Below, one piece after another: positions 19,565-20,923 of a stretch of 20,923 nt of DNA; the first letter of the stretch is position 1; the number at the start of each line of letters is the position of its first letter. Position numbers and translations under genes: made by a program. Origin of the DNA: Myxococcota bacterium (GTDB taxonomy: Bacteria > Myxococcota_A > Polyangia > Polyangiales > Ga0077539); contig JBPOHC010000900.1 of the NCBI GenBank assembly GCA_052035985.1, forward strand, positions 1-20,923, in the 5' to 3' direction. The notes below the pieces were generated by a model. It worked only from the letters and a program-made list of their open reading frames with translations, had not been told where the DNA came from and made no database searches.

Positions 19565-20422
19565 ATGAAGCCAGGGGCTCGCGCGACCGACATGCATGTG
19601 TGCCCGCAGTTCACCGGGCCCATTCCCCACGTAGGCGGACCGATCATCCCCGCGGCGCCGACGCCGACGCAGGCCGAGACGCTCCAGGCCGCGCGGCTCG
19701 CTGACTACGCGTTCTGCATGGGACCGCAAGACGTGGTCTTTCAGGGCGCGTCGACGGTGCTCGTCGGTGGCCTGCCCTTCGCGGGTCTGCTCGATTCCAC
19801 GGCGCACTCGGGGGTCATCATGATGGCCGCGAGCACGGTGATGCTCGGCGGCCCGACCTTCTCGCTCCCGCCCAACTTCAGGGTGAGAGGCGGCTCGGCG
19901 TTTCAGAACGCCACGATCCGCGACCTCTACTACCTCTCGACGCTCCCCTCGGGCCGCGCGCTCATGCAGCGCCTCGAAGACTCGGGCGAGACCATCACCT
20001 TCGTGCCCGAGAGCGATCCGCACAACTCGTTCTGCTCGCCCAACAACGGCCTCCTCGCTCGCCTCGGAATCCCGACGGGATCGACCGTGAGCTACAACCC
20101 CGACGTCGCGCTCAGCGCGTATGACTCGGGCGGCGGGCTCATCGACATGCCCCCGCAGGCGGTGCTCGGTCACGAAATGGTGCACGCGCTCAACAACGCC
20201 GAGGGCACGCACCACTACGGCCCCGACCCCGCCCCTCCCGCGTCGGAGCCCACCATCGCAGAAGAAGAGTCGTCGGCCATCGGAACGGGCAGCCACAGCG
20301 GCGACTACCCCACCGAGAACGACCTCCGCAACGACATGGGCGGAGGCGTCGGGCGACGCGACAACCACTACGGGCAGAACACCGCGGCGCCCACGGGAAA
20401 CCGCCGCCCCGGAGGCTACTGA
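19565..20422 (+). CDS. PAAR-domain protein with a C-terminal HExxH zinc-metallopeptidase-like toxin domain
   Basis: The PAAR signature MKPGARATDMHVC...AARLADYAFCMGPQDVVFQGASTVLVGGLPFAGLLDSTAHSGVIMMAASTVMLGGP matches the pattern AARxGD..C.GP.D.V.QGS.TV.I.G.PAAR.GD.TAHGG.I..GS.TV.IGG. The C-terminus carries LGHEMVHALNN (HExxH) followed by an acidic EEESSAIG segment. Confidence 0.75.
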   Translation: MKPGARATDMHVCPQFTGPIPHVGGPIIPAAPTPTQAETLQAARLADYAFCMGPQDVVFQGASTVLVGGLPFAGLLDSTAHSGVIMMAASTVMLGGPTFSLPPNFRVRGGSAFQNATIRDLYYLSTLPSGRALMQRLEDSGETITFVPESDPHNSFCSPNNGLLARLGIPTGSTVSYNPDVALSAYDSGGGLIDMPPQAVLGHEMVHALNNAEGTHHYGPDPAPPASEPTIAEEESSAIGTGSHSGDYPTENDLRNDMGGGVGRRDNHYGQNTAAPTGNRRPGGY

Positions 20423-20424
20423 CC

Positions 20425-20923
20425 ATGAACGTCTCGCTGCGCTTCACGCACCGCTTCGACGGCCGCGACCTCGTCATCGCGTGGACCTTCGCCAACCGCG
20501 AGTCCGCGGAGCTCGGTGTCTTCAACCTCATCGAGGTGGTGCGCCCCGACGGAACACTCAGCTTCTCGCCCGAGGTCGCCTGGGTCGAGCTCGATGAGGG
20601 CGTGCTCACGGTCTCGCAGCGCGCCCTCGCGGCGCCGCCCGACCTCGCGATGGCCGCGCGCGTCCCGCCCTACTGCTCGCGCTTCGCGGCGAGCGCAGAC
20701 AGCGAGGGAGAGGTCCGCGTCCCCCTCCCGCTGCGCGTGATGCACACGTATCGACGCGCGGCGCTCGGCGGTCAGGTCGTGGCCGATGTACCCCGCGAGG
20801 CGAGCGTGCTGCGCTTCGCGATGGGCGTGTTTCCCCTCGACGATCGGTGCCGCCTCGCGGCGGAGCAGCCCGCGTTCCCCGAGGTGTTCTCTGCGCTGCC
20901 TCCGGGCGCCGCGCTCGCGCGTC
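20425..20923 (+). CDS. Partial hypothetical protein (continues past the window end); candidate cognate immunity protein
   Basis: ATG at 20425 lies 3 nt after the toxin stop, with GGAGG 9 nt upstream. The frame is open to the window end with near-uniform G/C third positions (MNVSLRFTHRFDGRDLVIAWTF...). Confidence 0.45.
   Translation, partial: MNVSLRFTHRFDGRDLVIAWTFANRESAELGVFNLIEVVRPDGTLSFSPEVAWVELDEGVLTVSQRALAAPPDLAMAARVPPYCSRFAASADSEGEVRVPLPLRVMHTYRRAALGGQVVADVPREASVLRFAMGVFPLDDRCRLAAEQPAFPEVFSALPPGAALAR

Follow-up and report, generated by a model that had tools for sequence, protein, structure and literature searches.

We found that a stretch of 20,923 nucleotides from a Myxococcota bacterium of the Polyangiales (contig JBPOHC010000900.1, assembly GCA_052035985.1; the whole stretch is hereafter called the window) ends in a pair of genes on the same strand. 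The first encodes a protein of 285 amino acids (aa) in which a PAAR spike-tip domain is fused to a Peptidase_M91 zinc-protease domain, and the second, the partner gene, is a candidate immunity gene that is cut by the end of the window. The pair is probably a specialized effector of a type VI secretion system (T6SS) with its cognate partner. Coordinates of the pair and its parts are listed in Table 1.

An earlier sequence-only reading of this DNA had claimed a PAAR spike domain fused to a zinc-peptidase-like module with an HEMVH motif, and both parts of the claim were borne out. Pfam PAAR_motif (PF05488) matched aa 17-86 with 42.7 bits against a gathering cut-off of 27 (E 6.6e-11), and the strings quoted in that reading were all present in the translation: GPIPHVGGPI at aa 18-27, AARLADYAFCMGPQDVVFQGASTVLVGG at aa 42-69 and TAHSGVIMMAASTVMLGGP at aa 79-97. 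Pfam Peptidase_M91 matched aa 106-259 with 58.1 bits against a gathering cut-off of 25 (E 1.9e-15), and the match spanned positions 6-169 of the 176 in the profile, nearly its full length. The M91 domain begins at about aa 98-106, straight after the end of PAAR at about aa 97, and is about 185 aa long (aa ~98-285). An RHS repeat cage between the two domains is absent, and the protein contains no further domain.

Assignment of the C-terminal part to a toxin family was then only partly as expected. The sequence-only reading had pointed to the C-terminal 120 aa and to Tox-MPTase or zincin-like families; the zinc peptidase was found, but as Peptidase_M91 over about 185 aa and not as Tox-MPTase. 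Tox-MPTase and other zincin toxin families were ruled out, because PAAR_motif and Peptidase_M91 were the only Pfam models that matched the protein at E <= 1. Membership in the XopG/HopH/AvrPtoH subfamily of type III secretion system (T3SS) effectors was rejected as well, with a score of 28.8 bits against a cut-off of 150 for NCBIfam NF041347 and a match limited to aa 199-259.

Table 1. Positions in the window of the PAAR-M91 effector gene, the partner gene and their parts.
Feature	Position	Strand	Remark
PAAR-M91 effector gene	19565..20422	+	285-aa ORF; two Pfam domains
PAAR spike-tip domain, aa 1-97	19565..19855	+	
Peptidase_M91 (Tox-HopH1 / NleD-like) zinc-protease domain, aa 98-285	19856..20422	+	
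HEMVH zinc-binding/catalytic motif, H203 E204 H207 (aa 203-207)	20171..20185	+	read from sequence
E235 codon, candidate third zinc ligand	20267..20269	+	conservation and analogy to botulinum neurotoxin
GGAGG ribosome-binding site of partner ORF, within 3ʹ end of toxin gene	20411..20415	+	read from sequence
Partner (candidate immunity) gene, first 166 codons; ~191 aa in full length	20425..20923	+	cut at window end

Conservation in the family and a structural model agree with this assignment. H203, E204, H207, E235, E251 and R265 were invariant in all 37 aligned family members, and N252 was conserved in at least 90% of the same sequences; E251-N252 is the [DE]N motif. The residue set HExxH, Glu261, Glu350 and RxxY of botulinum neurotoxin (BoNT) has been described for M91 proteins (PMC6367388). 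By analogy, E235 would be the third zinc ligand, and E251 and R265 would shape the active site. The AlphaFold2 model of the toxin, built with 37 homologues, was confident (predicted local distance difference test score, pLDDT, 91.5; predicted template modeling score 0.89). The N-terminal third was beta-rich and the C-terminal domain was alpha/beta. Foldseek and a PDB sequence-profile search were concordant: the PAAR region matched the conical beta-structure fold of solved PAAR proteins, and the M91 domain matched a zincin fold related to BoNT light chains, which fits the published relationship between M91 and BoNT light chains (PMC6367388).

The last five residues of the toxin are RPGGY (aa 281-285, positions 20405-20419). 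Among the 20 closest members, R281, P282 and G283 varied little or not at all, and the tail was still recognizable in more distant ones. It could be in contact with the active site or with the partner.

Proteins with the PAAR-M91 architecture formed more than 110 clusters at 90% identity and were carried by Myxococcota, Acidobacteriota and Alphaproteobacteria. The toxin family is already named by the NCBI and JGI pipelines. A 93% identical orthologue in a Polyangiales metagenome-assembled genome (MAG; P0001) is called 'M91 family zinc metallopeptidase' at NCBI, and a member in Sorangium cellulosum So0157-2 carries the name 'NleD-like pathogen effector'. Further members were found in Neoroseomonas terrae and in MAGs of Bryobacteraceae and Solibacteraceae. 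Exact-sequence look-ups with the window toxin and with a Sorangium member (P0067) returned no record, and a scan of genomes with a family alignment of 20 sequences returned 10 loci.

Both domains were also seen in other combinations. In one protein (P0120), a related PAAR domain, 53% identical over the PAAR third, is fused to Ntox46 instead of M91; this PAAR type is thus shared with other proteins with C-terminal toxins while the toxin module differs. In the actinobacteria Cellulomonas and Microlunatus, M91 is fused to eCIS_core (PF13699) in two genes (L008, 9116-10912; L010, 9197-10942), which lack PAAR and are each followed by an LGT-like gene. PAAR with Ntox46 and M91 with eCIS_core reflect the modular behavior of polymorphic toxins.

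The partner gene follows the toxin gene very closely. Its ATG at 20425 comes 2 nt (CC) after the toxin TGA at 20420-20422, and the GGAGG lies 9 nt upstream of the ATG. The sequence-only reading was right about a small ORF with its own ribosome-binding site, while the gap of 3 nt that it gave is in fact 2 nt. Nor is the ORF complete, since the window contains only its first 166 codons; the fragment is 96% identical to a 191-aa ORF, its orthologue, on the syntenic contig JAXLYG010000023.1. With a profile of the partner, an ORF of the same family was found directly downstream of the toxin gene and on the same strand in all 12 independent related loci for which DNA was available, with E-values from 1e-81 to 5e-8. 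The pairing was therefore obligate among these loci. In one of them (L004) the toxin and partner genes overlap (ATGA). The same profile matched no neighbor of the actinobacterial eCIS-type M91 genes.

The partner family is large. Word-indexed searches for homologues gave only 2-3 proteins; an exhaustive HMMER search gave 596 representatives at 50% identity, 56 of them with E <= 1e-30, and mostly 190-205 aa long. No Pfam family was matched by 52 diverse members apart from one TAT_signal hit, and the partner itself had no hit in NCBIfam or among PDB sequences. Known immunity and adaptor families (Pfam Imm*, DUF4123, DUF1795, DUF2169 and others) gave no match to the partner with hidden Markov models. 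The structural model of the partner was all-beta with a pLDDT of 77. Pro, Gly and Asn make up the conserved positions, none of which looks catalytic; this pattern fits a binding scaffold better than an enzyme.

The window partner has no N-terminal signal peptide. An upstream start that would add one was rejected: the only alternative is the first TTG of the frame, and the frame overlaps the toxin gene. Most family members likewise lack a signal peptide, but Sec, Tat or lipoprotein signals were predicted in about 16 of 149 representatives (~10%), among them P0130, P0134, P0163 and P0216, pointing to the periplasm as the place where some relatives may act.

The partner also evolves as an immunity protein might be expected to. 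In nine toxin-partner pairs, mean identity was 26% for the partner and 46% for the toxin, indicating that the partner diverges faster. The correlation of its divergence was higher with the M91 domain (r 0.74, Mantel p 0.008) than with the PAAR domain (r 0.36, p 0.06), in a test of nine pairs that has shared phylogeny as a confounder. Conserved pairing, faster divergence, co-variation with M91 and the lack of an export signal make the partner immunity-like. These features are typical of an immunity protein that is cognate to the toxin and directed at its protease domain, with neutralization as the putative function. The effector-immunity layout proposed from the window alone was thus retained, with the partner in the position of an immunity gene at all 12 loci and with the evolutionary behavior of one.

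We then consider how the toxin would be delivered. The sequence-only reading had described the gene as an orphan next to holA and outside any secretion cluster. Positions 9563-20921 of the window form one colinear block with contig JAXLYG010000023.1 (L001; Polyangiales STL-MYX7) at 92.7% nucleotide identity, and on that contig the order is holA, PAAR-M91, the 191-aa partner, a 141-aa ORF, a convergent gene for a 761-aa VgrG and three unannotated genes. The gene for this VgrG (Phage_GPD, Phage_base_V, Gp5_trimer_C) is reached about 0.5 kb after the window ends; measured from the toxin gene, the distance downstream is about 1 kb. The apparent orphan status therefore probably arises because the window stops before the vgrG of the colinear contig, and that description was dropped.

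Other relatives also showed a link to the T6SS. In L005 and L018 the order is TagJ-TssA-TssE-TssF-TssG-ClpV-VgrG-PAAR-M91-partner, which places the pair at the end of a complete T6SS cluster, and the L014 and P0111 loci have a cluster of the same type. In L007, L017, L019 and L020, PAAR-M91 comes either straight after vgrG or after one intervening gene. The gene in between in L019 (8989-9972) and L020 (9007-9999) encodes an ATPase of about 330 aa of the AAA_21/AAA_15 type, which was not seen in the window. Spike delivery by a T6SS, the route suggested earlier from the window, is supported by these vgrG and tss neighbors in relatives.

We also considered delivery without a T6SS, in which the toxin would be the tip or the cargo of a phage-tail-like particle or of an extracellular contractile injection system (eCIS). 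The best sequence match of the PAAR part among solved structures is the eCIS tip SalCis10 (E 2.3e-31; PMC13266070), and the actinobacterial M91 proteins described above bear an eCIS_core domain. This domain is, however, confined to the actinobacterial M91 proteins without PAAR, the neighbors in relatives of the window pair are T6SS-specific (TssA, TssE, TssF, TssG, ClpV, TagJ), and the neighboring spike genes encode long VgrG proteins with Gp5_trimer_C. Since genes for the sheath, tube or baseplate of an eCIS were seen at none of the loci, we rejected eCIS delivery as highly improbable.

From these results we propose the following mechanism for the T6SS effector and its partner. The PAAR cone (aa 1-97) would cap the tip of a VgrG trimer, as the vgrG association in relatives suggests, and contraction of the T6SS would push the spike with the fused M91 domain (aa 98-285) into a neighboring cell. 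The M91 domain, predicted to be an NleD/HopH1-type zinc endopeptidase whose fold resembles that of botulinum light chains, and with H203-E204-x-x-H207 and E235, together with E251 and R265, as its candidate catalytic residues, would cleave at least one target protein, most likely in the cytoplasm of the rival bacterium. The translationally coupled gene would yield a cytoplasmic beta-sandwich protein of about 191 aa, which most likely binds and blocks the M91 domain and thereby shields the producer and its kin. Because the partner is predicted to be cytoplasmic, the target is probably a cytoplasmic bacterial protein.

The closest system with experimental data is SED_RS06335 of Salmonella Dublin SPI-19, a PAAR-Rhs-M91 protein that mediates competition together with its immunity protein SED_RS06340; its M91 domain is the toxic part and acts in the periplasm, and the product of the adjacent gene neutralizes it (PMC8867033, PMC13556075). 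Like the window toxin, SED_RS06335 has an N-terminal PAAR domain, a C-terminal M91 domain with HExxH and a BoNT-like predicted fold, and is bicistronic with a downstream gene. The lineages differ, the PAAR-M91 fusions being those of Myxococcota, Acidobacteriota and Alphaproteobacteria. SED_RS06335 has 1,406 aa and an Rhs cage, whereas the window toxin has PAAR fused directly to M91 in 285 aa. Also, SED_RS06340 is a 110-aa membrane protein, whereas the window partner is a predicted soluble beta-sandwich of about 191 aa without a transmembrane segment, which points to action in the cytoplasm rather than the periplasm.

Several points weigh against the proposed mechanism. The Salmonella domain is the only antibacterial M91 domain characterized so far, and it is toxic in the periplasm and not in the cytoplasm; its immunity protein is unrelated to the partner described here (PMC13556075, PMC8867033). 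Eukaryotic cells are targeted or entered by the M91 effectors NleD and TepB (PMC9846239, PMC10442045). Within our own data, vgrG, hcp and tss genes were all absent from the window, and L004, L006, L012 and L016 had no vgrG within 10 kb, so that dispersed copies exist. In L017 (8364-9105) the partner is split over two frames by a frameshift while the toxin (P0077) is apparently intact; either the MAG is misassembled here or the putative immunity gene is truly decaying. The small size of the Mantel test and its confounder belong to the same side.

One alternative is that the toxin acts in the periplasm like SED_RS06335, with the 191-aa partner as a chaperone or adaptor and with immunity provided by another gene such as the 141-aa ORF. 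The M91 C-terminal domain of the Salmonella protein was toxic only when it was directed to the periplasm (PMC13556075). The 141-aa ORF, which overlaps the end of the partner gene in L001 (11430-11855), opens with a lipoprotein-like signal (…LAGFVAAC…), and the tenth or so of the partner family with predicted export signals would suit this arrangement. The 141-aa ORF, however, had no homologue at any other PAAR-M91 locus, which ruled it out as a general immunity gene, whereas the 191-aa family was present at every one. In addition, the partner matched no Pfam model, T6SS adaptor and chaperone families included, and the window partner and most of its family carry no export signal. We know of no chaperone requirement for PAAR-fused effectors without transmembrane segments. 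We regard the periplasmic alternative as unlikely.

The other alternative is an effector against eukaryotes, in which an M91 protease injected by the T6SS would cleave signaling proteins in amoebae, fungi or other eukaryotes and the partner would be an inhibitor or stabilizer on the producer side. M91 has as its founding members T3SS effectors that target eukaryotic kinases, with NleD cleaving JNK and p38, and the carriers of PAAR-M91 are soil predators and soil bacteria. NleD, HopH1 and XopG resemble the window toxin as M91 family zinc endopeptidases injected into another cell, an activity assigned here by family membership; unlike it, they use a T3SS into eukaryotic hosts and lack PAAR and an immunity gene. 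Tpe2/TepB (PA14_33970) of the Pseudomonas aeruginosa H3-T6SS is closer, being T6SS-associated, with M91 motifs and located near vgrG, but instead of being fused to PAAR it is a cargo effector and binds VgrG3, and no immunity gene is predicted for it; it has been reported to have a role in biofilm formation and to be translocated into HeLa cells (PMC9846239, PMC10442045). In contrast, the partner gene is coupled to the window toxin and its relatives at all 12 loci and co-diverges with the protease domain, a signature of antibacterial effector-immunity pairs. The low score against the XopG/HopH/AvrPtoH model also sets the toxin apart from these T3SS effectors, and the only T6SS M91 domain that has been tested is antibacterial (PMC13556075). 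An anti-eukaryotic role thus has a small probability in our view, and an antibacterial effector with its cognate partner is preferred.

M91 domains in polymorphic toxins are not new as such. Tox-HopH1, which equals Pfam Peptidase_M91, was described by Zhang et al. in 2012 as a polymorphic-toxin domain with the T6SS among its delivery routes (PMC3482391). The window toxin shares its HExxH and [DE]N motifs. That catalogue stressed RHS-linked forms and gave no immunity family, whereas an unannotated partner family is always attached here. With botulinum light chains (peptidase M27), identity is about 15-18%, the domain has about 185 aa against about 420 aa, and delivery is unrelated. The insertions through which BoNT contacts its SNARE substrates are also missing from M91 peptidases (PMC6367388).

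Going one step further, the partner family could be a new and widespread family of cytoplasmic beta-sandwich inhibitors of M91, and the compact PAAR-M91 clade could kill bacteria by cleavage of a conserved cytoplasmic protein. The roughly 600 clusters of the partner at 50% identity and the lack of a Pfam model underlie the reading as a new family. We put this forward tentatively, as a serious possibility that falls slightly short of being probable.

The remainder of the window carries housekeeping or unrelated genes. holA lies immediately upstream of PAAR-M91, and a scan of 19300-20923 for promoters and terminators found nothing. The window as a whole has 71% G+C. The toxin ORF had a G+C content at third codon positions (GC3) of 0.885, and its stop-to-stop frame 0.88, which is the native codon bias. 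Recent horizontal transfer left no compositional sign, as G+C (0.69-0.72) and GC3 (~0.89) were like those of the neighboring holA. Other genes of the window include a rib operon with nusB, a hybrid histidine kinase, a vault-protein-like gene, an LTD-domain protein and an M20 peptidase. The riboflavin operon is intact (ribD-ribE-ribBA-ribH, then nusB; 878-4931, + strand) and is ordinary housekeeping.

The vault-like gene (10414-13035, - strand) encodes 873 aa resembling the major vault protein, with Pfam MVP_shoulder (E 1.6e-28), Vault_3 and Band_7. It is followed on the same strand by unannotated ORFs at 12897-13928 and 13956-15641 and then by the LTD-domain protein at 15547-17196, and the block is conserved in the Polyangiales MAG. 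A literature text search for 'major vault protein' together with 'myxobacteria' returned no paper. Beyond the end of the window, the three unannotated genes of L001 (14165-17479, - strand; 285, 632 and 185 aa) lie upstream of vgrG on its strand, and a weak match to LysM was their only hit. Possibly they belong to that vgrG island as its second set of effector or adaptor genes.

T6SS toxins with M91 are already known, from Tox-HopH1 in 2012 and from the Rhs-M91 protein of Salmonella Dublin in 2022/2026. The present finding is modestly novel, in the partner family and in the cytoplasmic target that it implies. For annotation, it adds an immunity-like family that merits a name, and it shows that apparent orphan PAAR toxins need to be checked past the edge of the window in which they are seen.

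Outside the clostridia, no proteases are more closely related to botulinum light chains than those of the M91/HopH1 family. To our knowledge, no substrates of M91 proteases are known beyond the JNK and p38 on which NleD acts, and for the single antibacterial T6SS M91 protein that has been tested, toxicity and immunity are all that is shown. The PAAR-M91 clade is small and has no Rhs cage, it is abundant, and a single soluble partner accompanies it in every case, which makes it a convenient system for finding a bacterial M91 substrate and a natural inhibitor of a BoNT-like active site. If the proposed mechanism is true, the cytoplasmic action of this clade would differ from that of the only M91 toxin characterized so far, which acts in the periplasm.

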